Shown: positions 3,187 to 53,343, numbered from the stretch's first letter. The stretch: DNA of 64,000 nt from Marsupella aquatica (GCA_973895155.1 OZ316896.1:13000549-13064548); one strand, 5' to 3'. Notes: generated by a model not told the origin, from the letters alone. Numbers and translations are program-made.

Positions 3187-3580
3187 TTTAGCGACGACGA
3201 TGAGTTCCGAGGCGGCGAAGGAGCAGAAAAACAGTTCGCTGCTGTCGAAGATGAGAACGGGACAGAGAACAGGATCCTGTCAAACTAGCTCCCGTCGAAG
3301 CAAATGACTTATCGATCAACGCAACAGCTTTCGAATTGTGTGTTGGCTATAAACAATCGGCCGTGGGCGTTGGAGGCAATGTGATGCGGGGTGTCTCGAT
3401 CATGACACCTTGAAAGTTCCACGCAGAGAAAAATCCTCGTCTCTGCAGGGAACGGAACGGTTGAATGCAGATTCGATCAGATTTTAATGGATATACACAT
3501 ACTTTATACAGAAAAAGGCCAAATAGAGTACAAAAGAATAAACAAGAGAGGTCCCAAGTGGACAAAACCAAACGCAGAAA

Positions 3581-3726: not shown

Positions 3727-6700
3727 CTAGTGGTCTACATCAAGTGTCGAAACTAGATCGGCAAGTGGGACAGGAATGTCCTCTAGGGGGGCTAGCCGCT
3801 GCGGAGTCACACTAGCACCCACTGTCAGAGATCGACGATAGACGGCCCGAGCTTGAGCACGCTGTAAGGTGACTGAAATGCGTTGGCGAAAGTGCGTGGT
3901 CAAAACAGATAGCGGGGGCCCGGTGGGACCCATCCGGCCGTGAACATCCCGAGCAGCTTGGCGAAGAAGCCCGTCGAACTGATGATGGAGACGCCCAAAT
4001 ATCTCAAGAGCAAGGGGCAGGAAGCTATCAGATGAAGCTCGTGCAGCATATTTGGCCTCCTTCGTTTGTGCTGCTCGTGATGCTGCTGCCCCTGCCGTTG
4101 TTGCCGCTGTCCCAATGATGTCTTGGCGCAATGGGTTTGCCACCACAACATCTGCCAAAGTACGGTGACCGTCACGGACCATGGCAAGATCCACCCGTAA
4201 CCGCTGTGATGGAGGACCAGGTAACTCGAGCACCACCTCCCGCCGCGCGCAGACCAAAGAGCTAGAGAGAACCTGAGCAATCGCATCTCTCACAGTGTCG
4301 TGAACAAAAATGGTTTCGCCGCCCAAACTGCATCGAAGAAGATGGACACCTGTGGCATCACAAGGCTTCCCACAAGTGCAAGTAGGAGGTAAACCAGCAA
4401 GAAGTGGGTAGGGCAAGCCCATACGAAGACGCATGGTTGTCGCAAACTCCGCTGAAGACATCCGCAGGTGAGGAATGACTGGATTGGCCTGAAGCCAGCC
4501 TCCTGCGCCCTTCCCTCCGGAAGAAAGAATCTGAGCTCGGTCCGTGTCAGGTGCCTTGGTGAGGATGCTGGAGAGGGTGAAAGCGTGCATACGTCCAGCA
4601 AGGTCTGCCTAAAGACGGACGGGGTCCAAGGATAAAACCTCCTGGAATGAAGGTAACGCAGCTCGAACAGGTAATGATGACCGAGCCGTGCGCAAATGAA
4701 CCTGAAATGGGAGGGAACCCTCCTCGACCTCCATGAGAGATGAAAGTAAAAAAAGGTCGATCCTCAATAAGGAAACGATCTGCCAACAATGAGAAGGCGG
4801 CCGCCCACGCGCCCAAGAAGGCCAAAGGTGCAAGGCGCTCAGTGGAAGTAAGCCCAAAACCACCGTGAGAAATAGGAAGACTGAGCTGTCGATGAAGCCA
4901 CGGAGATGAGAGTAAAGTACCTGGCCCTAAAAGAGAGGCCAAAGTCTCACGAATGGAGACATCAAACGCTCGGAGGTGTAGAGAAAGATCCTTGGTAGGG
5001 GGATGTGTCCGAGCCAAATAGGACGCACGAGGGTGGATGCATCTCAATAACAACCCAAATGCTGCCTGAGATTCTGCTAACTTAGGGAGCATAGGAGTAG
5101 GGGCTAAGGCAGCCTGGAGAGCGTCAGCAATGAAAGATGAGCAAAAGGAGGCGGTACCGACTGGGGAGCCAAGGACCCAAAGACCGTCGGCAGGACGTAA
5201 GAACCCAGGGGGAAGCGCAAGATCAGAGGGTAACCCAGCTGGACTCCATGCACGACTCTTCACCAGCTGTACTCGTAAACCGAGGCCCAACAAATGGGTG
5301 GAAAGGGTGGCGAGGGCAGAAGTAACAGCAAAAGCTGGACCAATGATGTGGGTGTCATCTGAAAGGGAGGGGAAGATACACTGGGGGTGGGCCGCGGAGG
5401 CTTCTCGTAAAGCAGTAAAATGGGCAATGGCAAAAAGAGGCCCACCCAAAGGGTCACCCTGACGTGTACTTTCTGCAGAAGAAAGAGTGGTATACACTCC
5501 TGTAGAGGTGTGATGACTATAGAAGAGGGGGGCCTCACACCCATAAAAACAACGGACAAAGGGGATAAGGGACTGGATGTCTGGATCCGCTGCCCTCAAA
5601 GCACGAAAAATTGCTGCCCGAGAAACCGTATTGAAAGCATTGGAGACATCAACCTGGAGGACAACCCAATCAGGGTGGAGGTCCATGGTAGTACGAATAC
5701 CCGCAATAACTGTCTCACAACCGCCAGGAACGCCCACTGCAAACTGATGTGGAGAGAGATGATCTGATAGTGCAGAGCGATACTGCGATGAAAGTGCGCG
5801 AGACACCAGACGAAGAAAAACCTCTCCAATAGCTATGGGCCGAACACCCGGTGAAGACTTAGCCATGGCCAATAAACGAGAAGCACTCAAAAGCCGAGAG
5901 ACGGGAGGAGGCAAACGGCCGGCAACGATACACTGGCAAAAGGAGAAGAAAACTGGAAAACCAGACTGAGGATCCTCAGGGGGGAATAAATCACGAAAAT
6001 GCTCAAAGACATAGCCAGAGGGGCCACCAGCCGCGCAACGCGGAGCATGGAGGAAAGCATAGGTGAAGTGGTCCCTACTAAACTGAAGATCCTCCTCAGG
6101 CTCAAAATCCTCCACGAACAAAGGGAGCTGATCACAGGGCTGCGGATGGAGATCCTGAAGGGCCGTCAAGGTGACCTCGCCAGGGGGGGCTGGTGTGGTG
6201 GGAGAAAGGGCCTGGACCGCACGACGATATTCACCAGCCTGGGCCAAACGACAAGAGTGACGAAGGCGTCTGTGCTCTGGAGGATGAGAGTGGCGAGCTG
6301 GGTCAGACAAAGCACGGGTAGTAAAGGAACGGGCTCGAAGAAAGTACTCTTCCTGAAGCTGTTCCCAATCTCCCCGTAGAAAACGATGGATACGAGAGGC
6401 AGTCTCACGATGACCCACGCGACCACCGTGACTAGGGAGGGTAAGAGTCCACTGTGGAAAAAGCATGAGTAAAGACCAATAGGAGACCTCGATAGGATGC
6501 GCCAAGATAAGCTGCATGAGTTGCAACAAGGATGACCGAACTAATGGGCGCAACGCTAGTGGGATGTGGTTATAAAGGCGAGGTCTAATGTACCCTGGAT
6601 GGTAGGCTGGAAGGGGGTCTAGAGAGCGAACCCAACTCCATGCCTGCTCGGAAGCCTCCAAGGAAGGAGGGGCAGAGCTAACTGGGTCAAGAGGGGGCTG

Positions 6701-7135
6701 GGGCTGGGGCTGGGATTGGGCTTGCTGGCGACGTTGGCACTGGCCCCGCCCGCGGTGATGAGGAAGGGAGAGGCCAACCCAGCCACACTCAGGACAAGTA
6801 TGCAGGGGACGCTCGTCTGGGGAGGGAGCAGGGAACGACTGGACAGGAGGTGGGGGGGGAACCGACGTGGATGAAGAGGCCGGAGGGGGATGCTGGAGGG
6901 GTGGAGGGGGAATGGGCTGGGGAGAGGAGCCAGGGCGTCGATGGGGTGGGCAGTAGACTGGGGGGACCGGCAGAACATCGGGCATGGGGTCATCACGAAG
7001 ATGAGAGAGATCCAATGAAGAAGAGCAAACACGAAGGCGACCACGAGGCGGGGGGGAGGAGGGGGGAGAACTGTGTGGGGGGGCTGGGCGCTTGCCCCGC
7101 GCCAACACTCTCAACGTAGACATGATAGGTCGCAA
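3727..7135 (-). pseudogene. Non-LTR RT-RLE polyprotein, disrupted
   Basis: N-terminal CPECG..HH zinc finger; RT motifs RPIAIGE, QFAVG, DVSNAFN, QGDPLGG, LSDD; CTCG..HLLRC knuckle; HDTVRD and RVDL..LADVVV (PD-(D/E)xK-type RLE). Frameshift in the T-run at ~4747-4754 and an in-frame TAG at ~4609. Confidence 0.85.
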
Positions 7136-8468
7136 CCCGATAAAAGCAAAAGCGCATCAAGAAGCAACAAAAGGCCCAACCAAGACATGTGAAAAGAAAG
7201 GGAAGGCTATGGAGAGAGCCCACCGCGTCAAAATCCGAGAAGCGGCGCCCCCGCTAGCCTAGAAAACCGTTGAGCACGTGCAAGCACAGCCGGGAACAAA
7301 GCTGGAGCTCTCGTCAATGTGTCCGTTGAGGAGTCGATGCGAGTGAATATCTCTCCGCTGATTTGAGTGTGCTGCTACAGCTCCCAAAGATGGTGGAATG
7401 CAAACTGGTCCACTAAACTTGGCAAAAACCACCTTGTCAGAACTGAAGAAGAAAGACAACCACCAATCGGAGGAGAAACGTGGCAAGCCAGGAATGCTCC
7501 AAAGCTGATCAAGGGAAACCGTCACCAAAAATGGAGGAGTAAATCAGAATCGTAATCGGAGCCGAAAGTGGTTGATATGTCACCAAAAGGACCGCGGTAG
7601 GGATAGATGTTGCACTCCCGGACAAGAGCTGGCCAAATCACATGAGAATGCCGGATTCCGTGAACGAGGAACTGCTACAGGACCCTAAAGCTAATTGAAA
7701 GTGAGAACGGTGGAAATTGAAGAAAAAACGTGAGAGCTAATCAAAGTCCAATCGGGGCAATAGGAGACCAATTGGACCGCTCTTGGGATCAATCTGATGC
7801 TCCCGGAGAAGAGCTATACAAAGCACTTGAGAAATCTGAAATCCGTGAAAGATTGACCGAGATATGACCGTCGAAAGGAAGACGAAAATCGTAGAAAAAT
7901 GACTGAAAAACGGCGAAAACGAATGTGACCATAAGTATGTTGATACGGCACCGTTTTGGACGTGTTTTATATCGATTTGATGCGCCTCGGCAAGAGCAAG
8001 CTAATGCAACTGAGAAAACTGGATTCCGAGAAAAACTGAGTGCGGGAGGGTAGTCGAAATGGCGCAAAAACTGTGCTACAGTTTGACCTCCATAGCCAGG
8101 AGCTCAAAGACTGAGGGGGACCGGAATCACAGCATCAGCAGGAGCCCCTGCTCTCCTTTGAAAAGTCAAAGTTGGATGGCTTCACCATCCAACTTTGACT
8201 TTTCAAAGTTGGATCAGATGGCTTACACTAGGATGGAGGGTTTGGGTTTGCATTGAAGCATGGTTGCCTTATATAGATCTGAGAGGAGCCATGGAACCAA
8301 ATCGAAACTGAAGAGAGACCACGGAGGTCATTGGAGACCCGGAAGGCCACCACCCGGTGAACAATCCAACCGAATAAATTATATCCTGTTGTTTCGCTTA
8401 CAGAAAGGAGTGGAGTGAGAAATTTCATGTCAAAAAGGACCCCATGAACAACCGAAAGTTTGAAAATT

Positions 8469-17892: not shown

Positions 17893-18906
17893 TTACAGAG
17901 TGATAACCACTTTCTTAGCGGACACTGTCTTCTGAGCCTCTATAGCGTCTTGTATAGACTGTAGACCTTTCCCGACTACGACGGGATCAGGTGCGGGGAC
18001 AAATTTGCCCTCCTCGAGAGCCTTTGGTAGGTAATCCTCGTAGACAGCCTTGCCGATATCGTTGTCCACAAAGCCCCAGATTCTCCTGCTTTTGACGCCG
18101 CCAGGTAGGTCCTCCGAGGCCATACCGACCGAAGCAATGATTTTGTGGCCTTTAGACTTGCTCAGGACTTCCGCACAGGCCTCAAGTACTCCATCCCGGG
18201 TGATACAGTCGAGCAAGCCAGCCATTGTTTTGCCCTTTAATGCCTCAACCAGCTCCTCGACGATAGTCTTGCTCTTGTAGTCGAAGACCTGGCTGGCGCC
18301 GAGCTTCTTGACGTACTCGAAGTTCTTTGGGGACGCAGTGGTGATAACCTCGTAGCCGGATGCAACGCCGAGCTGAATACCGTTGCTGCCGACACTTGAC
18401 GCCCCTCCCCAGACGAGCAACACTTGGCCGGTCGGCTTTGGACTCACGGACGGGTATGGAAACTCGAGGTAGTCTTTCTTATACAACCCTACAGCAGCAG
18501 TCGACAAGCCCAAGGGAATGACCGCGGCAGCCTCGAAGGGCATGGTGCTGGGAATTGGCGATGACATGTAGTCTAATACAACTGTGTACTCCTGGAAAGC
18601 GCCATCGCAATCACGCTGGGACGCAATGCCAATTGCGTTACCAAGCACTCGGTCGCCCACTTTGAATCGGGTGACGGAACTGCCGACCTCGACGATCTCA
18701 CCGGCGACATCTTCGCCGAGGATGGCTGGGTATTTCACGGGAAACTGGATCACCTGCTCTTGCAGGATCCAGTCGGCGGGGTTGATGGCCACTGCGGCAT
18801 TTTTTATGACGATCTCATGCTCACCGGGAGAAGTGTAAGGAGCGGGCCCGACCTCCAGCGGCTTCGTCTTCTCGGCAACAAGCCATGCGGCCGCGTTGGA
18901 TGGCAT
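17893..18906 (-). CDS. MDR enoyl-reductase-like oxidoreductase (CipB/LovC-like), copy 2
   Basis: Intact, intronless 337-aa ORF, ~79% identical to copy 1 by manual count. The 5' and 3' flanks are also homologous (1860-2170 vs ~17640-17890; 3187-3400 vs 18907-19110). Confidence 0.9.
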   Translation of the reverse strand: MPSNAAAWLVAEKTKPLEVGPAPYTSPGEHEIVIKNAAVAINPADWILQEQVIQFPVKYPAILGEDVAGEIVEVGSSVTRFKVGDRVLGNAIGIASQRDCDGAFQEYTVVLDYMSSPIPSTMPFEAAAVIPLGLSTAAVGLYKKDYLEFPYPSVSPKPTGQVLLVWGGASSVGSNGIQLGVASGYEVITTASPKNFEYVKKLGASQVFDYKSKTIVEELVEALKGKTMAGLLDCITRDGVLEACAEVLSKSKGHKIIASVGMASEDLPGGVKSRRIWGFVDNDIGKAVYEDYLPKALEEGKFVPAPDPVVVGKGLQSIQDAIEAQKTVSAKKVVITL

Positions 18907-19129: not shown

Positions 19130-19390
19130 TGTTGGAAATGCTGCGATCCTCAGTACCGTTTACCTACTGGGCCCACTTACCATTCCGTTGCGCCACTTGC
19201 TGTTCCTTGTAGTCTTCCGTCCTCTTCTGAGGACCATCTGATCTAGGTCTGCCTCACTGCTCCCTTGATCTGATCTATGAGTCCCGCTCACCCTGGGGCG
19301 CCTCTCTTCCTCTGGGCACTCCTTGCCTTGGCTTCACTTAAGTACTTTCACTGTTCAGCCATCTTAGTCACGTAGATAGTTTTATCAACA
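19130..19390 (+). repeat. Copia 5' LTR (261 bp)
   Basis: TGTTG...CAACA termini, directly followed by the PBS. Confidence 0.85.
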
Positions 19391-19402: not shown

Positions 19403-19601
19403 AAGATTAGCTCCTCCGTGACTAAGATCCTGCGCTGCACTTAGATGAGGGTTCTTTAGGTGTGAGTGACCAGAACTAGAATAGTCTTTTCTCTTTTCCG
19501 CTGCTTAGATTCTTTACTATACTTAGATGAGAGTTCTCTAAGTGTGAGGAGTCAGTACATTCGACTACACCAGTTGGTGAGAATTCCCATACGCTACAGT
19601 C

Positions 19602-20355
19602 ATGGATCTAGCTAGAATCTTTGGCGAAGCTAACAAGTTAGATGGCGACAGCAATCACATCTCTTGGAGCTTACTTGTTCAGACCCTACTCGAGCGAGAC
19701 GAAGTGTGGGATGAACTGAACTTTGCTGGCAACACTGCCACAACAGAAGATGCGACAGTAGAGGACGAGATTGTCCTCACTCCCAAGGAACGGAAGAAGA
19801 AGATAGTCAAGGCTAAGTCTATCCTGATGGCTACTGTGAAGACCAAGCTTCTTCACGTTGTTGCTTCCTTTGGCAACGATCCAGTAGCCTGCTTGCAGCA
19901 CTTCAAGCAACGATTTGGAGGTGATCTTCTCCAGCGGAGGCTACTACTCGAACAGAAGCTACATGCTGTCAAGATGGCCGAAGGCACCAATGTAGAAGAT
20001 TATCTAAGGGAAGTAGAAAGCATCACTTCTCAACTTGCCACGATTAATGCTACTGTTGATAACTCTCGTCTCTTACACATTGTTTTAGGAGGCCTTCCCC
20101 AGAGCTGGGGTCCTTTTGTCTCGAGCTTTGGAGTAGACTTATCTAAAACTCCCACACCCCAGTTCTCGACTCTTGTGGAACGTATGCAGGCAGAAGACTT
20201 CTGGAGAAGGGGCAAACGTGAAGAGATTGCTGAAGAAGCACTTTTTACCCGTTTCCATCGTCCTCCAGGGAGGGGCAGTGGCCATTACGTCTCAAATCGA
20301 TACAGTCAACCATCAGACCATCGTGGACCTGTTGGCCATCGTGGACCTGCTGGAG
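19602..20355 (+). pseudogene. Copia gag, N-terminal part (UBN2-type)
   Basis: KLDGDSNHISW, KMAEGTNVEDYL, VLGGLPQSW. Removing insert A rejoins the frame: GPAG|DYRAPA. Confidence 0.85.
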
Positions 20356-23300
20356 TGTGACACGAGTAACGTGGCACTTAACCGAACCCAGGTCGTAGAT
20401 TAGGTCTTATACGGTCATTAGGACCGTAGCCGTAGCGTAGAATAGCACGTATAGCCGTCTGTTGCCATTATGAATAGATTAGGAGTAGGTTAAGTTGACC
20501 GAATGATTTCGAATTTAGGAGGAGGATTATTACGTGCGACCGAGGTACGGCGGCGGCGGCGGCGGAGTAAAAATCCATTAGGAGCATCCCGCTTGGATCG
20601 AGGCGCCGACTTCAGCTCATTATCAACGACCAAAACGGCCTGGCCTTCTCACGCTCGGGCTCACCCTGGCACCTCCATGAGAGAGGAGCCGATGGCGCTG
20701 CGGGCCATTTGCTCATTTCTACCGTTCGGAATTTGCGGACGCTGCCATTCACTCGCCTTTTTGCTCGAATCAAGCTGACCTTTACAAGGAGATTATCAAG
20801 AGATAAGAGCGGGTTGTGGCGAGATTTAGTCAGGACAAGGAAGGCCTCCACCAGTAAGCAGACCGAACAGCGGGAACGCGGACTCGACAAACCAGACTAC
20901 AAAGGTTAGTATGACCCTTACAGCCTTGGGATTTTGGACCTTGTTTGGCGAGATAGGTGCTAAGTTCTCCAAGACTTACTGGTATTCTTGTCCCGAGAAA
21001 GCCGCTTATGAACGAAGATATGCGAAGCTGGTGGCCAAGGTAGCACAGGTTAATTGCGAGAAGACAGCCATCACCAGAGATTCCAGCTACAATGAGCTGC
21101 GAGACTACATCACCGAGCTATATCTCAGCGAGGAAGGGCTTAGATCGGTAGCAGAGGCGATTCTTGAAGTCCCTGCAAAGTTCTTTAGGCTGAAGGGCAG
21201 CCAGCGGCTTACTCAAGCGGAGTTCGACAAGATCCTGGGGTACCTAGACCAGCAGATCGCAGCCAAAAGGCGCCAAGAAGACATCAACAGACAACGGGAA
21301 GCGGCACATAACCTTATGTTCCTCGGGGAAAGCTCCAACGCCTTCAACTGGGATAAGGCAACACCAACACCACCAGCGCCTCAGCCGATGACCATCGGCG
21401 TACCACTGAACCAGTCCCAAGTCCGCCCCGTGAACAACACCGAGTGTTCTTCGGGTTCCGAGCGAGTTAGTCCGCATCTCGAGCAGCATTCTCGTAAGCG
21501 GGCAAGGACGACATCGGCCCCAGAATCGACAACACAAACCAACACCGCTCCTGCACATGCCCTGACAAACCCCCCAGCCAACCAGACCCGACGGCCCTGA
21601 ATAATCCCAAGTCTAACTTATTACAGGTAATCCGCGTTCCCGAGGTAGTCTGGATCGCGATCAAGAAACTCAACCACGTGGACTATCTCAAGGAGCATCA
21701 GTTAGAGCAATTCGCTCACTTGCTATGGAGACCGTGCGCGGTCGGGCCAAAGGAGATTTGTGAGTTCATCTCCAATTTTGACACCGACGCATCGACCACT
21801 AAGGTTTCATGGCAGACCTTATCACTCACGGAGCATCGGTTGGCACAGATCTTCTGCCTGCCAAGCAGGCCGGTGCCGGTTGAACTCCAAATTCGGGATA
21901 AGGAGTATACACCTCGGCACTTCAAACCCGAAGGTAAGATGGACAACGGATACAAGCAGGGGTCGTGCACCAACTTAATCTGCATGGAGCGGCTTAACTT
22001 CATACGGACTACCCTACACATGATTGAGCCAAGATCCGAGATTTCCCTCTGCACGATCATGCAGGTGGAACAGTACAAACGGCGGAACTAGGCCCAATTC
22101 TTTTACCGAAGGTTCTCGGGAGAGCTTAAGCGGGCTTAGGGAGGTATGGCTATTGGGGGGAAGACTTACCTGGGAAGTCATATCGCCATCATCCTCGCGT
22201 GGTACAAAGCACGGCGGGAGGCCAAGGGAAAGAATATGGCCACCTCAGCCCTGACTAATGTCACCCCCGCCCCAGAGGAGGCAACCCCGAGCGCGCGGAC
22301 TACCGTCCCTCGGGAAAACCCCGAGCCGGAGGCCCCGACTAATACTCCGTCACCTCCTCCTATCAAAATTCCACCGCCCCCTTCCGTCGAGCCTCCGCTA
22401 CCCGCAGTACAATCACCCCCAATTCCTCCACCACCTAAAGAAACCTTCCCCTCCCTAGCGCAGACTACGGAGGAGATCGTTGCCCCGCTCGAGGAACCAC
22501 CGGTACCCGAGAGGATGGAGGACTACCAAGTAGCCCCGGGGACCATGGCCTACAACCCGGTCCAGAAGTTTAGCCAGACTATGTCTGGGGAGCTGGCGAC
22601 GTACATCAGACAACAAGTCTCGGCATACTTTCAACCAGCCTTCTTCATGTTAGAGCACCAACCACGGATCGTCGGCCGCTTGGAAGAAGAACTCATGGCG
22701 AAGGGGAATGAGATCGGGCGACTCCAAATGTTGGTGGAACACCTCAAGGAGGAGGCCACTACCCGCCGCGAGGAGTTAGTCCGCACCGTCGAACAGCGAG
22801 ACGGACTAACCCAAGAGTTGAGCGGGGCACAAGCAGATCTCAAGAAGCTGGACGACACCATGCTTCAGTTGCGCTCAGAATCCTCGGCTCGGGTTACCAG
22901 CCTAACCGACCTTAACAACCAATTCCTGCAGGCAGCTCAGCAGGTAGCTAGTCTCTCCGCCGAACGGGATAAATTGTTGGCGCAGGACCAGACCCATCGC
23001 GACTCCATTAACCAGCTCAACCTGGAGGTAGCTCGGCTCCAGACAGAGGCCGATGAAGCCGCAAACAAGGTGGAGGAGGCGGTGCGGGACAACAAGGCCT
23101 TGCAGGACCGCGTTACCCTACTCGCCCTCCAGCGGGGAAAATCTGGGCCCACCTCTGATCAAGGCGGCTTGAGGTCTCGCCCCGACAGGGGGACAAACCC
23201 TGGTCCGACCACAGCACACACGTAAGGGGTGGTTAGCGAAGGGTGGAAGTAGGCGCCGCGTGAGGCAGTGAGTCAGCGGCATCTTTTGGTTAGGCGTAAC

Positions 23301-24193
23301 GACAGAATAGCCGTCATTAGGCGCCGATTAGCGGCAGTAGGAAGAATTAGGACCAAATCAGTTAGGATCAGCCAACGTAGGATGGAGTCCATCAACGGAC
23401 TAGATTTTTTTCAGTAGGCTTTGCTGCTGCCATTCCTGTCGGCACCCTTGTCATCGACGGTCAACCAGTCAAGGTGGCGCGGCCAGTTAGTCAGTAGGTA
23501 TTACCCTGGAAGGTAGTATCCTCCGGTTCCCTTTCGCAACCGTAGTATTTAGGCTTCCCCTTCCGCTATGGGAGGGGAGAAGGCTTAGTTATCTCAGTAG
23601 AAGAAAAGGCGAGACACGGGGAGTCCCGGCTTGAGCAGGGTCAGAGCGCACCAAGGAGTGAGAGCCAGAGTCGAGCTTGCTGGGCAAGTGCAAGGCGGGG
23701 CCTCGTAGAGACTGGGCATCGACTGCCGTTGGGCCTACTGACCCCCTTAGAAGTCGAGTCAACCATGTAAACTGATGCTTCGCTGAGTAAATGTAGTCTT
23801 TTCCCTCTAATGTTTCCGCGAGTAACTGGTGTTGTGTGTATGCGTTGTCTGGGCAAAGGCGCCATTTCAAGGGACATACCGGGTGCGGACTAATGGTAGG
23901 GATTGCCACCCATTGCATGTCACAAGGTTCTGTCGCGTCGATGGCTTGAAAGCCCCAAGCCGGGAGTTAGTCTGAGTCACTAACTATGGGAACATTCCAG
24001 CGGTGGAAAACAAATATACCTATGACTAGTACAAGTTGCGTAAGTGTTATACCAATAAGTATATTGCCTTAGCCCAACTAGGGGCTAATCGAGGCCGCTA
24101 CACACCTCCTTGCCCAAACCCTCACCCCTACTGGTGGTCGAGGTCGCGCCATGGAGCTAACCTGGATTTAAGGCCCGGGTTAGGGACGCAACA
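20356..24193 (+). mobile_element. Insert A: 3838-bp gene-bearing unit with integrase-type ends (putative giant solo-LTR)
   Basis: Starts TGTGAC, ends GACGCAACA. TSD TGGAG at 20351-20355 and 24194-24198. No internal paired LTRs, no gag/pol. Confidence 0.85.
20911..23225 (+). pseudogene. Insert A gene: N-terminal helical domain, plant-transposon (PF20167/PMD-like) domain, Pro-rich linker, coiled coil
   Basis: Pieces 20911-21600, 21678-22091 and 22146-23225 align with the insert B protein. One frameshift near 21600 and two in-frame TAGs (22089 aligns to Trp in B). Confidence 0.75.
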
Positions 24194-26218
24194 TGGAGAT
24201 TATCGTGCTCCTGCTGTTGATCCACGTAGTCATCATCTGACTGCCCCGGCTCCCCGTCGTCCGTCTGGTCCTTGCAACTATTGTAGCAAATCTGGCCATT
24301 GGGAATCTGAGTGCAATTTGAAGAAGCTTGATGATCAGATTTCCCACTTGATGATTCGAGCTGGAAATCTACGACACATCAAACCCCAGGCTCACCTTAC
24401 TGAGTACCCATCTGATGACCTTGAGTTTGATTATCCTTTCCCAGATATGCAGGATGACAAAATTGCTGCCAATCTCATTGAATACCGGAATACTTCACGA
24501 GACTGGTACATGGACTCCGGTGCTAGCAATCACATCACCGGGAACCGCTCCACACTCGATAGTTTTCAGCCTAGTTCCTCTGGCCCTGGTGTAACCACTA
24601 CGAGTGGTGCCACCATGCCCATTTCTGGCAAAGGCACCGTCCATGTTGACAATCAAGCTATCAACAATGTTCTTTACGTGCCTGGTGTTCACAAAAATCT
24701 CATGTCTGTGGGCAAGCTTGCTGATGCTGGTCATCTCATTCTCTTTGATTCTACATCTTGCCATGTCTATGATAAGGATAACCCAACGTCAGTTGTTCTA
24801 CAAGCATCTCGATCTTCTAGGAACAGTCTTTACCGACTGCTGCCCCCCAGCTCAGGCCTCAGCCACCCAGAGATGCCTCGACTACTTCCCCCAGAAGTCA
24901 ACTCCATCACCACCATTGCAACTGACCCAGCTGATCTATGGCATCGACGTTTGGCTCATCTCAATTTCCAGACCGCCCACCACATGACAACTAGGCACCT
25001 TGTTACTGGCGTTCCCATGCTCTCCCTTCAGAAGAAGAAATGCACCACATGTATTTTAGCCAAAACTCACCGTGAGAGTACTCCTCAATACTCTCTCCGA
25101 CGTACCACTCGTGTTTTGGCCTTGGTGCATACTGATCTTTGTGGACCCATTCAATTGACCTCCACAGTGAAGTATATCTTGACTTTCATTGATGACTTCA
25201 CTCGGTTTACATGGGTCTACTATCTCTCTCACCAATCTAACACCTTCCGCTGCTTCAAAAAATTTTAAGTGGCTACTGAAAAACAGCTTGGCAGCTCACT
25301 TTCCTGCCTTCGCTCTGACCGGGGGGGCGAATACATGTCACATGATTTCTGAACTTCTGCACTGACCACGGCATTCAACGTCAACTGACTGCTCCCAGCA
25401 CTCCTCACCAGAACGGAGTAGCTGAACGTAAGAATCGTACTTTGCTTGAGGCTGCCCGTAGTATCTTCATTGAAGCTAAATACCCACACTTCTTATGGCC
25501 GGAGGCAATCAAGGCTGCCACCTATGTCCTCAATTGGTGCCCCACATGGGCACTCCACCTCTCCACGCCATTCCAGGCTCTTCACGGTATGAAGCCTGAT
25601 CTTTCTCAGTTACGTGTTCTTGGGTGCTCTGCTTTTGTTCATGTTCCCAATCGTCCTGTTGGGAAATTTGGGCCTAAAGCAGTTCCCACTATCTTTATTG
25701 GCTACGACACCAACACTAAAGGGTATCGGTGCTTTGATCCTGTCTCTCATCGTATCCTGATTTCACGCAATGTTACTTTTATTGAGGATTCTCCTGGTGA
25801 TTTCAATGTTCCCCATTTTCCGTCTGATCTCTTTCTCGATCTCCTGCCTCTTGCTATGGCTTCTACTGAGCCAGGGGGAAGAGCAGCAACAATCTACTAC
25901 TGATCAACCAGACAACTCTCAACTTGAACATCATCAACCGGACAATTCTCAACTTGCACATCATCACCAGCATGACGAGAACCCTCTCCAGGATCACTCC
26001 AAAATCCACCATGGTAACAACAAGGCTCCCTCTCTACCGGGCTCTCTACCACGTGCTGCTCATACATCTCCAACTCTCCAGTCAAACTTGCCACCCAAGC
26101 GTCGGGGCTCACAGGCAAGACAACTACCGGCTTGGGTGCGTAGTGGGGACTACGAGATGCACATCCCGGAGGATGTGGACTTATGTATTATTGAGACTAC
26201 TAATTCTTTGAGTGACGA
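24194..26218 (+). pseudogene. Copia gag zinc knuckle, protease and integrase (frameshifted)
   Basis: CNYCSKSGHWESEC, WYMDSGASNHIT, LWHRRLAHLN, VHTDLCGP, RSDRGGEY, QNGVAER, FIGY..NTKGYR. Frameshifts and a stop near 25260-25365. Confidence 0.9.
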
Positions 26219-26569: not shown

Positions 26570-27005
26570 CGGTAATATAGGGTCAATCTGAAAATGAGAA
26601 TATATCAGTGTTTACAACAATATATTGTCATTATGGATTTCTCCCATAAATGACTAACTCTAGGGTCAATCTTGAAATTAGGACATATCAATGTTTACAA
26701 GAACATACCGTCATTATGGACTTCTCTCATAAATGACTAACTCTAGGGTCAATCTTAAAATTAGGACATATCAATGTTTACAAGAACATACCGTCATTAT
26801 GGACTTCTCTCATAAATGACTAACTCCAGAGTCAATCTTGAAATTATGATATATCGGTGTTTACAACAACATACTGTCATTATGGACTTGTCGCATAAAT
26901 GACTAAATATAGGGTCAATCTAAAGATCATGATATATCAATGTTTACAATAACATACAGTCATTATGGACTTATTGCATAAATGACTACTTATAGAGTCA
27001 TTAAA
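26570..27005. repeat. ~82-bp tandem repeat (~5 copies) in the CACTA subterminal region
   Basis: gtcattatggacttctctcataaatgactaactctagggtcaatcttgaaattaggacatatcaatgtttacaagaacatacc reiterated. Confidence 0.85.
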
Positions 27006-27089
27006 GAACCCAAGAGATATGAAGATTAAAATACTCAATAGTCATTCCAGACACCGGTCATAATTGTAGAGTCATTGATATAGTTGATA

Positions 27090-30000
27090 ACCCTTCCACT
27101 AAGTGCGGGACACAATAGTCATCATTGTCCTCCCATTGGTTGCAGCATTAGCAATTTGAACACATGTCTTGCATTTACTTTAGGCATGATGCACCTAGCT
27201 TTGGGGAAATCACTCCCAAGTCATACACCTTTGGCGTGATTTTCCAGAAGTGTCACCATATATAGATGCACGCATACTATCGTATCCAAAGGCAAATGAA
27301 ACATTTTTGTCTCTCCAAGAAGTAGGGCAATACCAATGGAAGGTTGTCATCCTTTGTTGTAATTGTGTCATGTTTGTGTCGGTGTTTGGATGGGGAATAT
27401 TTTAATTTGCAAATAAATAGTGATGGGGCATTCAAGGAGCTAGTGTAATCTTTATTGGGTCATTTCAAAAAACATTTGCATCACAAATACCAATGACTAC
27501 AAGTAGGGTCATTAAATTTGTCATATGGACTGTGATATAAGTCAAGTGATTGGACTTGTGGTCATTTGTGTGGTCCCTCATGCAGTCATTAAACACAAGC
27601 ACAAATGACCAGTTTGGGGCTAGGGGTTGGAGGTGGGCCCTAGAGTGCCATGGGGCCCCACATAGAGGTGAGAACCCCTCCACTGGGTGTGGGACACTAT
27701 ACTCATCATTGTCCAACCACTAGTTGTGCCATGAACACTTTGGACACATGTTTTTGCGTTTACTTAAGGCATGATGCACCTTTGGGGAAATCACTCCCAA
27801 GTCGTACGACTTTGGAGTGATTTGCCAAAAGTGTCACCATGCATGCATACCATCACATCCAAAGGCAAAAAAAAGTTGTTTTTGGTTCTCAAGAGGTAGT
27901 GCTGCACCAATTGAATGGGCAGGGGAGTTGTGCTTCTCAGTATGGTGTGGGTGCGGGATTAGGGAAGAGGAATATTCCAATCTTGTAAGGAATCTAAAGC
28001 TGGCTCTCTTTGGAGGTACTAGGGCCTTTATTGGGTCATATGTGAGCAATGGCCCATCATTAATACCAATGACTAAAAGTAGGGTCATTAAAACTGTCAT
28101 ATAGAGAGTCATATCAGTCTAATGACTGGATTTGTGGTCATTTGAGGGGTCCCTCATGCAATAATTAAGGAAAAGCACAAATGACCAGTTTGGGGCTAGG
28201 GGCTGGAGGTGGGCCCTAAAGTGCCATGTGGCACCACATAGAGCTCGCAACCCCTCCACTAGGTGTCAAATACTATAATTACTATTCTCCAACCACTAGT
28301 TGCACCATTAGCAGTTTGGAGCCATGTTTTTGTGTTTACTTAAGGGATGTTATAATCTTGGGGAAATCACTCCCAAGTCATACGACTTTGGAGTGATTTG
28401 CCAAAAGTGTCACCATTGATGCATACCGTCCTATCTAAAAGGAAATGAAGCCATTTTTTTTGTCTCTACAAGAAGTAGTGCAAGGCTGTTGTCCTTCCAT
28501 ATAATTGTGTCATGTTTGTGCCGGTGTTTGGATGGGGAATATTCTATTTTGCAAATGAATAGTGACGGGGCACTCAAGAAGGTAGTGTAATCTTCATTGA
28601 CTCATTTCTGAAAAAATTGGTGTCATAAATACCAATGACTACAAGTAGGGTCATTAAATCTGTCATATGGGCTGTCACATAAGTCAAATGACTGGATTTG
28701 TGGTCATTTGAGGGGTCCTTTGTGCAATCATTAAGCAGAAGCACAAATGACCAGTTTGGGGTTAGGGGCTGGAGGTGGGCCCTAGAGTGCCATGGGGCCC
28801 CACATAGAGCTGAGAACCCCCTCCACTAGTTGCGGGACACTATACTCATCATTGTCCAACCACTAGTTGTGCCATGAACACTTTGGACACATGTTTTTGC
28901 GTTTACTTAAGGCATGATGCACCGTGGGGAAATCACTCCCAAGTCATACAACTTTGGAGTGATTTGCCAAAAGTGTCACCATGGATGCATACCACCGTAT
29001 CCAAGCGCAAATGGAACCATTTTTTGTCTCTCCAAGAAGTAGCGCAACACCAATGGAAGGTTGTCATCTTGTGATGTAATTGTGTCATGTTTGTGCCGGT
29101 GTTTGGATGGGGAATACTCCATTTTGCATATGAATAGTGTCGGGGCATTGTGAGTAGGTGTTGTAATCTTCATTGGGTCATTTTGGAGGAATAGTGTGTC
29201 ATAATGCCAAAGATTGCAGTAAGGGTCATTTTTGCAATCATTTTGGAAGTCATTTGTGCACAATGACTGCATATGGGGTCATTATAGAGGTCCCTCATGG
29301 TGTCATTATGGACCATCAGAAATGACCATTTTGAGTCTAGGAGCTTAAGGTGGCCCTAGTGTGCCATGGGGCCCTACATGAAGGTGGCAACCTCTCCACT
29401 AGGTGCAGGGTACTATACCCACTATTCTCCAACCACTAGTTGCACCATGAACACTTTGGAGCCATGTTTTTGCATTTTGTTAAGGCTTGATGGAACCTTG
29501 GGGAAATTACTCCCAAGGCATACGGCTTTGGAGTGATTTGCCAAAAGTGTCACCATGGATGTATACCACCACATTCAAAGTTAAATAATAGTTGATTTCT
29601 TGTTCTCTAAGAGTAAGTGCAAAACCAGTGGAAAGTTGTTGTCCTTCGATTTAACTATGTCATGTTTGTGCTGGCGTTTGGGTGAGGAATATTCTATTAA
29701 ATTGCTAAGGATTTGCCAGGGGCCACTCCGATAGGTAGTGTAATCTTCACTGGGTCATTTTGGAGGAATGGTGTGTCATTAAAGCCAATGACTACCATGC
29801 ATATGGGTCATTTTGGCAGTCATTTGGACCAAATGACTGCATACCTGGTCATTACAGAGGTCCCTCATGGTGTCATTAGGGACCAACCTAAATGACCAGT
29901 TTGGGGATAAGGGCTGGAAGTGGGCCCTAGACTGCCATGGGGCCCTACATGGAGCTGGCAACCTTTCCAATAGGTGCGGGACACTATACTTACTATTCTC

Positions 30001-30550
30001 CAACCACTAGTTGCACCATGAGCACTTTGGAGCCATGTTTTCGCAATTACTTAAGGGATGATGCAACCTTGGGGAAATCACTCCCAAGTCATACAACATT
30101 GGAGTGATTTTCCAAAAGCACCATCATGGATGAATATGTTATGTTCCAAAGGCAAATGGAGCCATTTGTTTGTTCCTCCAAGAGGTAGTGCAACACCAAT
30201 GGAATGGGCGTGGTAGTGGTGCTTCCCTCTATGGTGTGTGTGCTGGTTAAAGGTATAGGAATATTCTATTTTTGCAATGAACCTAGAGTGGGCTCTCTCG
30301 GGAGGTACTAGGACCTTCATTGGGTCATTTTTGCACAAAGTTGTGTCATAAGTTCCAATGACCACAAATAGGGTCATTACATATGTCATATGGACTGTCA
30401 CATAAGTCAAATGACTGGATTTGTGGTCATTTGAGGTGTCCCTAGTGCAGTCATTGAAGACAAGCATAAATGACCAATTTGGGGCTAAGGGCTTAAGGGC
30501 CCTAGAGTGCCATGTGGCCCACATAGAGCTCGCAACCCCTCCACTAGGGT
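27090..30550. repeat. ~570-bp tandem satellite-like array (~6 diverged units)
   Basis: Anchor ccactagttg recurs at ~27716, 28293, 28860, 29433, 30004; ggggaaatcactcccaag recurs in each unit. Confidence 0.9.
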
Positions 30551-35085: not shown

Positions 35086-35757
35086 GTGTGCAGGACCATG
35101 GCTTGCAATAAGCAGAAGGCCATGAATCGTTGCAGAGGTGAATCCTCTCAAGCACCTCAATTGTCCTTATATTCAGACATTGAGATTAACCAAAATAGCC
35201 CACATGTATGTGCGATTTGTGATGAGGGAGGGGATCTCATTGTTTGTGATGGGCCTTGCCACCGACATTTCCATAAGAATGTTTCCTGTCCTTTGGGTCA
35301 GCAATGGCTATGCCCAACTATATCCCTGGCCGATGGCCATGTTGGAGAATGGCTTTGTGTTGACTGCAAGAATGAGGAACATTCTTGCTTTAAGTGCCAT
35401 GTGTCTGGAAAAATTGGTGAAGAGGTAAGAAAATGTCCAGATCCTCTCTGTGCCCGGTTTTACTGTCGGCAGTGTTTGGTTCCTGGCACAACATCATGTG
35501 GACTCCATATTTGTCACACTTGTGGACAGGGGCCCAATGATGGGGCTAATGGCTTTTTGGTTCAGTGCATGAGGTGTCCTAAGGCATGGCACAAGGACTG
35601 CCTGCAGTTTATCCAGCAAAGGGGATTTGCCCATGATCGAACAATTTGGGATCACTCAGCGCATGGGCAGCCCAAGAAGGGAATGTTTTACTGTCCTGAC
35701 CATGACATTGATCCTACACTAGGCACTCCTGCCAAGAGCCACATTTCTTGGATTTGA
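35086..35757 (+). CDS. EDM2/NSD-type tandem PHD-finger protein (TE-borne)
   Basis: VCAICDEGGDLIVCDGPCHRHFH...WLCVDC..EHSCFKC...CARFY...CGLHICHTC...QCMRCPKAWHKDCL...FYCPDHDIDPTLGTPAKSHI matches the EDM2 PHD array, including its YCxxHxID..LxTP..H tail. First ATG at 35098; may be one exon of a larger gene. Confidence 0.8.
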   Translation: MCRTMACNKQKAMNRCRGESSQAPQLSLYSDIEINQNSPHVCAICDEGGDLIVCDGPCHRHFHKNVSCPLGQQWLCPTISLADGHVGEWLCVDCKNEEHSCFKCHVSGKIGEEVRKCPDPLCARFYCRQCLVPGTTSCGLHICHTCGQGPNDGANGFLVQCMRCPKAWHKDCLQFIQQRGFAHDRTIWDHSAHGQPKKGMFYCPDHDIDPTLGTPAKSHISWI

Positions 35758-36346: not shown

Positions 36347-36654
36347 ATGGCACAATTGCCACATAATAGGTTAGGTGTGGGTAGAACTCCAAAGTTGCCG
36401 CTCTTCCATCCAGCTAGAGTACAACATCGTGATGATGCTTTGTGGGTTCGAGAACAGAAGGCCTGCCACAAGAGTGGGGACCATAAGATGTACTGCCCTT
36501 GTGTGAACTGCAAAGGGAATTATAGGACTAATCGAAATACTGCTAGACTGCACCTTATTAAACATGGTCGGTACCCTGCATGTCGAGTGTGGGTGGGAGA
36601 GGGACAGGACTCTTCTGATGAAGAGTGGGGTGCTGACTACATGTCACAACATGG
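36347..36654 (+). pseudogene. CACTA-1 transposase N-terminus (transposase-associated domain)
   Basis: KMYCPCVNCKGN...ARLHLIKHG. Rejoins 40633+ in frame once insert B is removed (SQHG|PEAL). Confidence 0.8.
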
Positions 36655-37013
36655 TGTGACGCCGCCGGTACCGCGGTTAATGAGTGATTTGGTCTAACTG
36701 CGCTAGGCACGCGCGTTAGGAGTGTCTTAGACCGCTATTATTAGCATAACGACAGTATTTAGGTAATCATTATGGGTAGGATATCATTAGGCAATAAGGG
36801 GGAATTCAGGTTTGGACTGGCGGCTGGTCGCTATTCGCACACCCGGGTTACGAGCGTGGAGGGGCCCCTCCCTCGGGTCCGTATAACGAACTTAAGGAAG
36901 CGGCCACTGACACGCGCTGACTCAGACCGGCGGAGTGGCCGGCACACCACAAGCGTGAGCGGTTCAGCCTATGGGCTTCGAGGAGACGTCAAGGGATCGA
37001 CAAGCCCTCAAGG

Positions 37014-37020
37014 TATAAAA
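37014..37020 (+). promoter_or_regulatory. TATA box of the insert B gene
   Basis: TATAAAA(GGGG), ~100 bp upstream of the ATG at 37122. Confidence 0.6.
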
Positions 37021-37121
37021 GGGGAGCCAACCCTTTGTAGTGCACCAGTCCATCAGTCCACGCGCCAGCTTCGACCCCAGCTCTCTCGTTCGCTCTAAGT
37101 CGCCACTACTATCTCCTCTGA

Positions 37122-39752
37122 ATGTCGCACACGATCCTCTCCAGCTCGGCCATTCAATTCTGGACGCAGTTCCTATCTACCGGAAGGCACTTGGCCGACT
37201 CATTGAAACACGCCAACCCGCGCTGATACAAAATCGAACGCGAGTACGAGCGAGCCATCCGCCTAGCAGGACAACACCACTACATTCTTAACTTTGACTA
37301 CCCGTCTCAGAGCGAGCTTTACCGACCAGCAGAGGTATCCGGGTACTTCTTCAAAGGAGACAAATATATCGGGTTCTGGGAAGCATTGCTTCGGCTTCCG
37401 GACGAGGTCTTCAATATCCCAGGTACGATCGACTTGCAGCGACATCACTTCGACCACATCCCTGCTCAGGTTTGGGCTATCATCAACAGCGAGTCCAGCA
37501 CTACCCGTTCGACAAGGTCATCTGCACTCGCTTTGGAGAACTTCTACCAGCACCTACAGAGCTTCATAGGAACTCGGCCAGCAACCAACATGACCAACTC
37601 AGTTGTACCCGTACCCGTACCCGTACAACCTCAGGTTCAGCTTCAGCCTCAGCCGCAGCCTAGCCAAACCCCACCACCGATCGCCCAGCCAGCACAAGTA
37701 CGCTCCGTCATCAACGCTGTGGATCTTAGCGATGACGACGAGGCTACCCTACCCTTGACCAGGCGGCCCAGAGGAACAAGCGCTCAGGGGGCCGATACTA
37801 TATCGTCCCCACCCCCTGCTCTGACCCCAGGAGCGGCCCCGGCAGACAACATGGTGACCGTGGCCGACCCGGGCCTATTACTAACGGCAGTAGCACTACC
37901 CAGGCCCGATCGGGAGGATGGGGAGGTGTCACCTTCCCCAAGCCAGTCATGGGGGAAGAAGAGGAAGGAATCCGTCACTGCATCCGGGTTACCATTGGCC
38001 ACGGTAGCCGTGGCCAAGGTGACGATGCACCGCATGCAGGAAAACATTCACAAAAACATCCTCCATCCCAAGCATGCGGTGTACCTGAAGATTCAGGGAT
38101 TGGAGCACCTCGCCTCCCTCCCCTGGAACACTTGCAGGTACTATGGGGAGGACATGACGGAGTTCATCAAGAATTATGATGACGCACGTCAACATACTCG
38201 GCTACGGGGAAGGAGTATGTCCCTCACGGAAGAACGGCTCAGGATGATCTTCGGGTTACCCGAAGGTGACCATCGAGTCGAATCACGGGCTCCCGGGGGC
38301 AAGGGAGCCAAGTACCAATCTTCAAGTTTTCCCTCAGAGGGAGCAGTGGACAACGGGTTCGTGATGAAAACCTGCCTCATCCCCGAGATAGCTGAGCGAC
38401 TGGAGTTCCAGAGGTACGCCCTCCACATGATGGAACCCCGGGGGGAGATCTCCGCCGCCCAGGTTATCCAGGTCGAGAACTATCGACCTAGGAGGTGGGC
38501 GTCGTACTTCGCTAAGAAATTCCATGAAGAGATGGAGCGGCAAAGGAAGATGCTGTACATTGGCGGGAAGGCGTATTTCGCTAGCCACATCGAGATCATT
38601 CTTGAGTGGTACGCCCGGTTTGATCGACGAACCCTTCCCCGTGTCAACGTTACAAAGCTGGTCCCAGCTAGGTGGGTTTTCCCGGCCTTGGAGAGATGGC
38701 CCCAGCCCGAGGCCCGAAGTCCAGCGGACATGCCAACTTCACCCACCCCACCTCCACAAGTAGCTGTAGTCGTAACCGAGGAGGTACCGGATGGGTCGGG
38801 TGTCGCAACCGTTGATGCGACCCAACAGGCCGGGCTAAGTACAGAAGTCGGTACGGCGGAGGTCTTACCCGAGCCAGGGTCTCCCAAATACCCACCGGTG
38901 GCTATTCCGGAGAACCGGACATTGCTGCAGGAGGACACTCCAGCCCCTTCCAACGTTACATCCCCAGGGCTGGACGTCACTGCCCCGGCCCCCGTGCGTG
39001 TGGACGTCTGCTCGTGCCCAACTCCGGACAGGCACAACCTGGACCACCCGGAACTCTTCGTACCAGGTACATTTCTGAACGGGCTTCTGGGAGATTTCTC
39101 TCATCAAATTGCCCGGGATACCGGGGAGTTCATGGCCCGGAAGGTAGCCTGTTTCTTCAATCAGGAGTTGGTTGCCGCAGTAAAGGCGGGTCGGGCCCAG
39201 TCAAAGGCCCTTCAGAGGATAGAGCGGTACCGGGTGGAGTCCGTGTACCTAAAGAACAAAGTTGCAGCTCAAGAGGCTGAGCTTCTACAACTACGACCCA
39301 AGGTTGCAGCCGCCGATGAGTTGTTAGCAAAGGCGCACGCTCTTACCGCCCTAACCGAACAGGCCAAAGCTGGGAACGAGGCCGAGATTACACGACTCCG
39401 GAACCAGATTGACAGTTTGAAGAATCAAACTGTCACCTGGCAGAAAGACCTGGAGGAGGCCGAGGAACGGGCCCAACGGGACACGGCGGAGATAGCCACG
39501 CTGCAGGCCGAGGTGGCGCGGCTCCAAACCGAGGCCGAGAGGCAGGACCAGCTGGCGGGTAAACTGACAAGTGACGCCCAGCAGCTAGAGGAGGCTTGTC
39601 AGGAGGCAGTAGAGGAGACGGACGCGGCGAGGCGAGAGAACGAATCTCTGCTGGACCAGGTCCAGCTCCTCAAGGCGGACAATGACAGGCTTCGAAGGCA
39701 GCGGGATGGCCGCTCCCATTCGGGCGGCTCTGGCAAGCGTGCCAGGCATTAG
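37122..39752 (+). pseudogene. Insert B gene (~876 codons): N-terminal domain, PF20167/PMD-like domain, Pro-rich linker, coiled coil
   Basis: ATG 37122 is in frame with the 788-aa ORF, with a single TGA at 37224 (probably CGA). SAIQFWTQF/EALLRLPDEVF align with TALGFWTLF/EAILEVPAKFF of insert A. Confidence 0.8.
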
Positions 39753-40632
39753 CGGCGGAGTAGGAATAGAGTAGGATTAGGACTAGCTTAGTCAGGCTCT
39801 TGGGACAGGCACCTGCCTTAGGTACAGCATCGCTGCCGTGCTGTCCAGCCTGCATAGATTAGGATCTTCTAATAAGACATAGCCGTTTCCGGCCTGACTG
39901 TCAGCTTAGTTAGGACCTTAGTCAGCGAATCTTCGGCGAGAGGACACCCCGTCCCTCGTCCTTTAGTATTTAGTGCACCCCTCGGTAGAGGCGGGGGGGG
40001 GTTTTAGTTGCAAAGTTGGGCGTCCGTGGTATGTGCGGGGAGTCCCGACCTCTGGGAATGAAAGAGTACCAAGGGGAGGGGGTAGGACTAAGCTTGCCGG
40101 GCTCCGTTGTAGTGTGCACCCTCGGCCTTGAACCTGTTCATTACGGGGCTGTTGGGTCAACTAAGTGTACGCATATGTTCCCTTTGTAGTAAAATCCTTT
40201 CCCATCATTTTTCTTCGTGTAAATCGAGATTGTATGCATGTGCGCGTGTATGTGTGTGGGTTTCTCGTATATGGGTGGCAGCGCCAGGCCGAACGCACTA
40301 CCCGAGATGTGCACAGGGTGCAGCCTGCGGGTAAGTGGTTGCGAGCATGGGTTGAGGACCTGTATCATCGAATCCGGATCGAAGGCGGACAGCACGAAGG
40401 CTTAGAAGCCCTTAAGCCGGGGTCGATCCTGCTATCGACTAAGGTACGTTTCGACGGCGGAACACAAACCATACCTAGGAGGTGTCCATATTTAGCAGTA
40501 TGCGCACTTAGCGCTAGTTTACGAGAATAAGGTGCATTACGCGCTTCCCTTCCTGCCCGAACCCTCAGATTTACGAGGGATATGCCCGTCTAAGCTGAAG
40601 TCTGAGTTAAGGCCACAGCCGATGACGTGACA

Positions 40633-46500: not shown

Positions 46501-46769
46501 GCCTCCTCCCACTGGTGCAAGTGTGGATTCCGTGAAGGCGTATGCCTATGAGGAGGAGGTAAGTCAATGTCCTCCCAGTCACCTGGGTCATGATCACCCC
46601 GGGGATCACCCTCATCTGCATCCATGAATTGGTGCATCAACTCATCCATAGCCCGGTCCTCATCCACTCTTTCTTGGGTAGCATTAGGTAGTTCATGTGG
46701 AATGTCCATATCCTCAAAAGGTTGACCCCCTTGCCTACCATCCATGGCCTGAAGGAGATGTTGTCGCAC
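43540..46769 (-). pseudogene. CACTA-2 TNP2-like transposase (Transposase_21, DUF4218, DUF4216)
   Basis: IHACVNDCILF, RHVRLGLASDG, YNIPPW, WTMHDLP, LDPMHIEGN, KTHDYH, RWMYWVER, FKCKWF. Frameshift at ~45880, probable intron ~45490-45627, and a stop in the CPTC exon. Confidence 0.9.
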
Positions 46770-46983
46770 AGCTCGTGATAATACCTCAATATCTGGCTGA
46801 ACAAATGCATTCTATCATACACAAAAGAAAACAATGAGAATGATATAAGTCCAGGCCTCTCAACCAACAATTGAGACATCCATATATGAATGAGTCAAAA
46901 GACTCCATAGCTCTTGAAACCAATTAGAGAATGACTCAAGTAATATTTTTATAAAAGTGAACATATACACATGTTTGTATGTG

Positions 46984-53183: not shown

Positions 53184-53343
53184 CTGGTTGTCATACACCT
53201 CCATCATACAAGGGTAAACGTGATACTGGGGTACTTGCTTAGGGTAACCCTGTCATAGTCACCCACACAATCCGGAAATCAATTGCCAGGCAGGCTGATT
53301 CAAAGGACAGTCGGACTTAATCAGGTCACGGCTACTAAAAACC

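Follow-up and report, generated by a model that had tools for sequence, protein, structure and literature searches.

The window analysed here is a 64,000-nucleotide stretch of Marsupella aquatica DNA (GCA_973895155.1 OZ316896.1:13000549-13064548; positions are counted from its first letter). Our subject is an insertion, unit A, that lies within the gag/pol frame of a copia retrotransposon and carries one large gene. Two siblings of unit A, which we call B and C, and a Gypsy retrotransposon, G, lie in the same window. The insertion and its host are laid out as follows.

19130-19390, + strand: 5' long terminal repeat (LTR) of the host copia, with its primer-binding site (PBS) at 19391
19581-20355, resuming at 24199-25268, + strand: host copia gag/pol, with gag and pol domains on both sides of unit A
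20351-20355, + strand: TGGAG, left target site duplication (TSD) of unit A
20356-24193, + strand: unit A, a TG..CA element of 3838 bp and probable solo LTR, judged by its ends, TSD, host frame and depth
24194-24198, + strand: TGGAG, right TSD of unit A

With unit A taken out, the host gag/pol frame runs open through 258 codons up to the insertion site and 356 beyond it, just as an earlier reading made from the sequence alone (the sequence-only reading) had claimed for copia gag. The TGT...ACA ends (first letters TGTGAC, last letters GCAACA) and the exact 5-bp TGGAG duplication that it reported are likewise borne out, the latter at 20351-20355 and 24194-24198. The ends are not in themselves proof, given that the + strand has six TGTGAC..ACA pairs with a 5-bp duplication, when 30 Markov shuffles give 3.9 on average. 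Since ends and duplication alone do not rise above chance, it is the host frame, together with sharp depth borders, that proves the insertion. Unit A is a genuine integrase-type insertion with a 5-bp duplication. The host copia itself breaks off near 26.2 kb, before the reverse transcriptase.

Contigs from four public runs (two organism labels, two studies) were placed on 19900-24700, and summed contig depth was compared between 23 inner bins and three flank bins, a ratio that is not a copy number. Run X2, in which some flank bins were empty, was excluded, as were both bins at the borders and two flank bins of higher depth. Depth jumps sharply at both borders of unit A. Inner-bin depth was 105-727 times that of the flank bins in X1 (median 295), 59-234 times in X3 (median 120) and 60-206 times in X4 (median 120), and was alike for gene and arms (118 versus 117 in X3, 125 versus 107 in X4). 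These data show that unit A belongs to a high-copy family whose coverage extends over the entire unit, arms as well as gene. In both X3 and X4, flank contigs end at 20350, with an overhang of 30 letters, while others begin at 24194, which, judged from lengths only, fits an empty site (an allele or a copia paralogue). We also examined the 15 best-supported of 101 joints within these contigs. Five of them skip 590-2388 nt, and one deletion joint takes out the entire gene (20899-23189); the depth of these joints is about that of the flank contigs, and so the large internal deletions, among the joints listed, have not been amplified. None of the 15 runs from the end of the unit to its start.

The two siblings lie downstream, in or beside CACTA elements.

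36655-40632, + strand: sibling B, 3978 bp, TSD CATGG, interrupting a CACTA transposase frame
37014: TATA box upstream of the B gene
37122-39752, + strand: gene of B, the same gene as in unit A, 877 codons with one internal stop
47388-49736, - strand: sibling C, 2349 bp, TSD CCCAT, without a gene, containing a 26-bp tandem array (8 copies) and a TATA-like motif
23546-23551, + strand: TATA-like TATTTA after the unit A gene, a putative LTR promoter, with the same motif in the same place in B
23615-23767, + strand: non-coding block conserved in A, B and C (74% to C)
23941-24031, + strand: conserved block with four helices and compensatory changes, putative R/U5

The CACTA frame across the B site is open for 114 plus 541 codons. 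Two CACTA (Transposase_21) elements occupy 36400-42300 (+) and 43540-46811 (-); B sits within the first and C just upstream of the transposase frames of the second. The anatomy of C is that of an ordinary solo LTR. A, B and C are homologous to one another in their 3' non-coding parts, with z of 9-13 between pairs, and no homology is detectable between their 5' arms (z 0.9-2.2). The TATATA of C aligns with the post-gene TATTTA of B at 83% over 47 nt. In the 90-nt block near the 3' end, 6 of 24 pairs across the four helices are changed on both sides, which 3 of 500 shuffles equalled and slid controls (0-1) did not, a covariation drawn from three sequences from which the structure was itself derived. 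The promoter, poly(A) site and U3/R/U5 borders of unit A are putative; what A, B and C have in common here is the TATA-like motif and the structured 3' block. At the edges of the structured block (23953-24025), loose contig ends in run X3 start or stop (13 and 11 contigs), suggesting that further families share this block alone. An Rfam scan of 20300-50000 gave no match at E<=1.

The gene of unit A has the following parts.

20911-23225, + strand: accessory gene, ~771 codons (2315 nt) from ATG at 20911 to TAA ending at 23225, disrupted in unit A
20920-21225, + strand: N-terminal domain of ~100 aa, common to A, B and liverwort/Logan homologues, identified by hidden Markov model (HMM)
21633-22205, + strand: core domain of ~200 aa with a predicted PMD/VANC(DUF1985)-like fold, from a model of B's copy built on a 66-row alignment
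22686-23156, + strand: coiled-coil-like C-terminal region, with only sub-threshold matches to coiled-coil families

The ~770-codon gene of the sequence-only reading thus has the span claimed for it, but is not a single open frame: there is a frame change within 21498-21600, and in-frame stops occur at 22089-22091 and 22137-22139. Among the variants listed (40 of 777), the other copies' reading differs from that of unit A over 83-100% of depth at 21600 and over at least 99% of depth at 22137. Because the other copies differ at both positions, the stops at 21600 and 22137 look private to the unit A copy.

The A/B protein runs from the N-terminal domain through a low-complexity linker, the core and a Pro-rich linker to the coiled coil. 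An HMM of the N-terminal domain, built from four outside matches, finds A (E 1.6e-14) and B (E 3.5e-13) and no match in the three pieces of the extra open reading frame (ORF) of G; the domain has no Pfam match. A profile search of 1.84 billion representatives returned 81 matches. Nine of the 20 looked up are Calypogeia fissa proteins, the remainder being Logan, ENA or NCBI records, one with JGI members; the Calypogeia homologues are annotated 'unnamed protein product'. One match, P0085 (906 aa), has the full A/B architecture, and in a tree of 49 rows (17 of 66 rows, each under 130 residues, were dropped) it clusters with A and B (92/94), separately from G. Adjacent Calypogeia accessions with near-identical split copies were considered as an LTR pair and rejected, as their order is mirrored. 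Searches for a related locus in viral contigs, and by DNA pattern and by protein in metagenome contigs, found none. Word-index protein searches (the B core near its length, and alignment A4 at 1587-4530 residues) found nothing, which is weak evidence.

The closest placed homologue of this protein is in element G.

51865-53730, + strand: 5' LTR of G, with the PBS directly downstream; the 3' LTR begins at 63381
59772-63303, + strand: extra ORF of G, fragmented, downstream of pol and ahead of the 3' LTR, its core homologous to the A/B protein

The B protein matches the G extra ORF at E 3.8e-20, and a piece of A matches it at E 8e-11, so that the A/B protein shares with Gypsy additional ORFs a homology to the extra ORF of a gag-pol Gypsy element. 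At the level of sequence, this homology shows a Gypsy origin for the A/B protein. The location of the gene is another matter, given that in both A and B it lies inside the unit bounded by the TG..CA ends and TSD, rather than in an internal region. Over 65% of the query region, the pol of G shares 77% identity with a Calypogeia protein, which makes a leafy liverwort the likely host. The two LTRs of G differ at 12 of 620 comparable sites. The first 415 codons of the G extra ORF (59772-61019) match neither Pfam nor the A/B N-terminal domain. An open frame of 119 codons lies in the 3' LTR of G (63642-63998), with a stop interrupting its counterpart in the 5' LTR (51865-53730); it has no Pfam match, and might be another example of an LTR that contains coding sequence.

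An AlphaFold model of the B core from the 66-row alignment has a predicted local distance difference test (pLDDT) of 96.5 and a predicted TM-score (pTM) of 0.91, while from a 3-row alignment pLDDT is only 38.6. Compared with 48,161 chains (VIA), the model's top match is DNA-bound VANC21, with Z 8.0, root-mean-square deviation 4.1 and 192 of 204 residues aligned; the next match has Z 2.4, and the tool cautions that Z below ~13 can mean an arrangement common in helical proteins. Foldseek also ranks VANC21 first (TMq 0.55, E 0.14). VANC21 is therefore the clear best structural match of the core, at moderate strength, and we predict a PMD/VANC-like DNA-binding fold for the A/B core. ESM Atlas clusters, taken as leads only, point to DUF1985 (0.90) and PMD (0.89). 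There was no BFVD match to the model at E<=0.001, a sequence search of the PDB gave coiled coils only, and no MAIN/PMD chain appeared in the fold match lists, which excludes nothing. The published record links PMD to the DUF1985 domain of VANC (bioRxiv 2024.09.27.615353; PMC13547354) and describes PMD-coiled-coil ORFs in Tat elements (PMC4408406, PMC9289625), and the VANC21-like match of the core fits both. Given this fold, we see about an even chance that the A/B protein opposes silencing.

VANC21 is reported to bind a short motif that has accumulated in non-coding regions (PMC5735166). That motif, YAGTATTAY, is absent from all 10 regions that we counted. The arms of unit A contain a different one.

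20400-20582, + strand: (G/T)TAGG cluster at the 5' end of unit A, strand-biased, with 6 on + and 0 on - in the first 250 nt
23249-23553, + strand: second (G/T)TAGG cluster directly after the unit A gene, with 10 on + and 0 on - in 330 nt

TTAGG occurs 11 times in the arms of A, with 2.8 expected (0 of 1000 shuffles as high), and 7 times in those of B, with 2.4 expected (8 of 1000), though the motif was picked post hoc, after inspection of the data. Both units begin with a TAGG cluster and have another behind the gene, and a cluster at the start is also found in C and in the true LTR of G. Going by sequence, these clusters could be either a target motif of the family or a generic feature of LTR starts. 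The repeated placement in A and B is what one would expect if the unit were the relic of an LTR-gene-LTR element, each of whose LTRs had lost the half that the other kept, with a U3-like arm remaining on the 5' side and an LTR-like arm on the 3' side. We regard this as quite improbable: the two zones have no residual similarity (z 0.3 and 1.2), and such a relic could not have spread to high, uniform depth unless it acted as one LTR.

Motif clusters in the non-coding arms and a VANC-like fold also call to mind a non-autonomous DNA transposon, VANDAL-style, with TG..CA ends and a VANC-like gene. The ends speak otherwise. Inverted matches between the ends of unit A amount to 4/10 and 15/30 nt; over the first 10 nt there are 4 in A, 7 in B and 8 in C, against 5 and 7 in the true LTRs of the window, and over 30 nt C has 20/30, somewhat above A's 15/30. 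Unit A thus has no terminal inverted repeats beyond the att-like ends of an LTR. Nor does it resemble the Mutator-like (MULE) VANDAL elements that encode VANC, with no MULE transposase (or any transposase) in the unit, TG..CA ends and a TSD of 5 bp. The TSD of MULEs is 9 bp. As the closest placed homologue of the protein is, moreover, a Gypsy extra ORF, we consider a DNA transposon very improbable.

The sequence-only reading had reported no terminal direct repeats, and would have taken their detection as the sign of an ordinary TRIM/LARD. None was found by BLASTN (word 7, 11) or a repeat finder, or when the 5' arm and the post-gene zone were locally aligned (z 0.3), and, as it also reported, no gag/pol Pfam match lies inside the unit. 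A pattern scan (PPT+TG) found no signal resembling a polypurine tract (PPT) in A, B or C, and a scan with PBS motifs found one weak match in A and none in B or C. Signals for reverse transcription must therefore lie outside the unit, given that none inside A, B or C is convincing. With neither two terminal direct repeats nor an internal PBS and PPT, unit A itself is not a terminal-repeat retrotransposon in miniature (TRIM) or a large retrotransposon derivative (LARD). It does have the features of a solo LTR: A, B and C all combine TG..CA ends with a TSD in the 4-6 bp range (TGGAG, CATGG and CCCAT), and the flanks are the interrupted target itself, as the frames across A and B demonstrate, free of any attached PBS, PPT or internal domain.

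Our preferred interpretation is that unit A is a solo LTR of a Ty3/Gypsy-type family with a PMD/VANC-like accessory gene inside U3, which we consider probable; this includes a parent without gag-pol. Three lines of evidence favour it: the 3' block of A recurs in C, which is gene-less and built like an ordinary LTR; the protein is homologous to a Gypsy accessory ORF; and the unit contains neither a terminal repeat nor a convincing PBS- or PPT-like signal. Reverse transcription requires R repeats, a PBS and a PPT, and for this reason recombination between two LTRs is the normal origin of a lone TG..CA unit with a TSD. In the ancestor that we envisage, an extra ORF sat downstream of pol and ahead of the PPT, the arrangement that G has. 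Had a PPT lying further upstream then come into use, the LTR boundary would have shifted upstream of this ORF, placing the gene in U3 and copying it into both LTRs; absorption of the accessory gene into U3 is thus what we infer from sequence, and the older LTR start may lie at the TAGG cluster behind the gene. Integrase would then have put the two-LTR element into copia gag, and LTR-LTR recombination, favoured by very long LTRs, would have left a single LTR. Such a solo LTR would keep the complete gene, its own promoter and the LTR poly(A) site, that is, a full transcription unit. The protein would probably bind short motifs in the family's non-coding DNA, for which the one-strand TAGG clusters are candidates, and oppose silencing, with solo LTRs whose genes are intact supplying it in trans.

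A number of observations weigh against this interpretation, in addition to the limits given above for the ends, the covariation, the fold Z and the TAGG clusters with their generic alternative. A full-length parent has not been seen, all three family members in the window being single units, and the deletion and joint evidence covers only 15 of 101 joints. Upstream of the unit A gene there is no canonical TATA, and the single-sequence folding z of the 3' block is weak (-0.2, -0.8, -2.1). The fold match is moderate, with a Foldseek E of 0.14 and 8-10% identity; in Pfam, none of the 66 aligned members matches PMD or DUF1985, while six match Transposase_32 (best E 1.6e-7). The five scored matches to Transposase_32 (PF20167) have 17-32 bits, below the cut-off of 45, and the window proteins match neither PF10536 nor PF20167. 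The LTR of G, the sole full-length Gypsy in the window, has no homology to A, B or C (z -1.7 to 2.6), and the G protein falls in a separate clade and is without the N-terminal domain. With LTRs unrelated and the protein of another clade lacking that domain, G is ruled out as the parent of unit A.

The parent itself may have been non-autonomous, LARD- or TRIM-like, with a short PBS-PPT spacer between a pair of giant LTRs and the LTR gene as its sole gene. The insertion, sibling and depth data fit this equally well, and no gag-pol is linked to the unit. We think such a parent unlikely, and count it as a sub-case of the solo LTR, its share lying within the probability given to that interpretation.

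The sequence-only reading had offered two possibilities. A giant protein-coding solo LTR is favoured by the anatomy of C, the Gypsy ORF homology and the want of a terminal repeat and of a convincing PBS or PPT. The other, an undescribed unit mobilised in trans, has become unlikely. It would be a standalone, LTR-only unit without gag/pol or terminal repeats, copied and integrated by Gypsy enzymes, for instance through a circular or read-through intermediate. All three members in the window are single, each with its own TSD, no parent was found within the window, and depth over the unit is high and drops sharply at its ends, all of which such a unit would explain. However, established retro-element chemistry needs the R repeats, PBS and PPT that are not to be found, convincingly, inside; the 15 best-supported joints include no end-to-start joint and the large deletion derivatives listed are not amplified; and long-LTR families are rich in solos, as in Retrosat2, for which PMC3485330 reports 429 solo to 162 complete copies. 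Slightly less likely again is the further proposal that liverworts have LTR-only mobile units, integrated in trans, whose VANC-like gene keeps helper retrotransposons unmethylated, making the unit a mobile trans-acting anti-silencing cassette.

Three things are already known, each on its own: solo LTRs, LTRs longer than 3 kb, and extra ORFs of PMD type. Unit A is like the solo LTRs of long-LTR Gypsy families (Retrosat2/RIRE3/RIRE8; Del/Tekay), which have LTRs over 3 kb, TG..CA ends and many solo copies, and the terminal letters given for Retrosat2 in PMC3485330, TGTCACACCC/GGGCGTGACA, are similar to its ends. As described there, Retrosat2 has its extra ORF0 upstream of gag-pol and outside the LTR, whereas here a gene of 770-880 codons lies within the TG..CA unit. 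Long LTRs are reported to be more prone to LTR-LTR recombination (PMC7251063); Del att sites are covered in PMC4029996, and liverwort LTR lineages in PMC12885004.

With the additional ORFs of Gypsy elements (the Tat PMD-coiled-coil ORFs, Athila env-like/Transposase_32, Retand and Grande gene23), the A/B protein shares a core followed by a C-terminal coiled coil, homology to the 3' extra ORF of G and, in its relatives, weak Transposase_32 matches. Unlike them it has an additional N-terminal domain, and while the ORFs described in PMC7264820 and PMC4408406 are internal, situated ahead of gag or else after pol and before the 3' LTR, this gene lies inside a terminal unit. The predicted core fold, the coiled coil and the motif clusters in the arms are reminiscent of VANC21/DUF1985 of VANDAL MULEs and of MAIN/MAIL PMD proteins. 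The differences from VANC21/DUF1985 are 8-10% identity, no Pfam match, retro-type ends and a 5-bp TSD; VANC is described as dicot-specific in PMC13547354, as opposed to the likely liverwort host here. A further parallel is MMTV (mouse mammary tumour virus) sag, an accessory gene in U3 that, according to PMC9147501, lengthens the LTR, although its protein is unrelated, the MMTV LTR is ~1.3 kb rather than 3.8-4.0 kb, and our unit belongs to a plant retrotransposon, not a retrovirus. For a plant LTR containing such a gene we found no precedent in the titles and abstracts of the literature searched, a search that subscription papers lay outside.

PMC7264820 states the function of plant Gypsy extra ORFs as an open question. 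If a Gypsy ORF of a bryophyte has a VANC21-like fold, sequence-specific anti-silencing by retrotransposons becomes a testable idea far beyond dicots. A gene inside the LTR would also reverse the usual meaning of solo-LTR formation, in that the deleting recombination would leave a complete expression unit, and a genome could accumulate many copies of a trans-acting gene even as it purged gag-pol. In annotation, such units probably end up as orphan host genes, and LTR finders that need paired repeats probably miss them.

Elsewhere in the window, a non-LTR (LINE-like) reverse transcriptase element with two frames lies at 3727-7156 (-), diverged tandem arrays occupy 26578-26988 (~83 bp) and 27078-30548 (~575 bp), and an ORF with NSD-like PHD fingers (35086-35757) adjoins the CACTA element. 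Two intronless zinc-binding dehydrogenase paralogues with ~80% DNA identity (2176-3279 and 17893-18906, -) are, we presume, of fungal type, and may reflect horizontal transfer.

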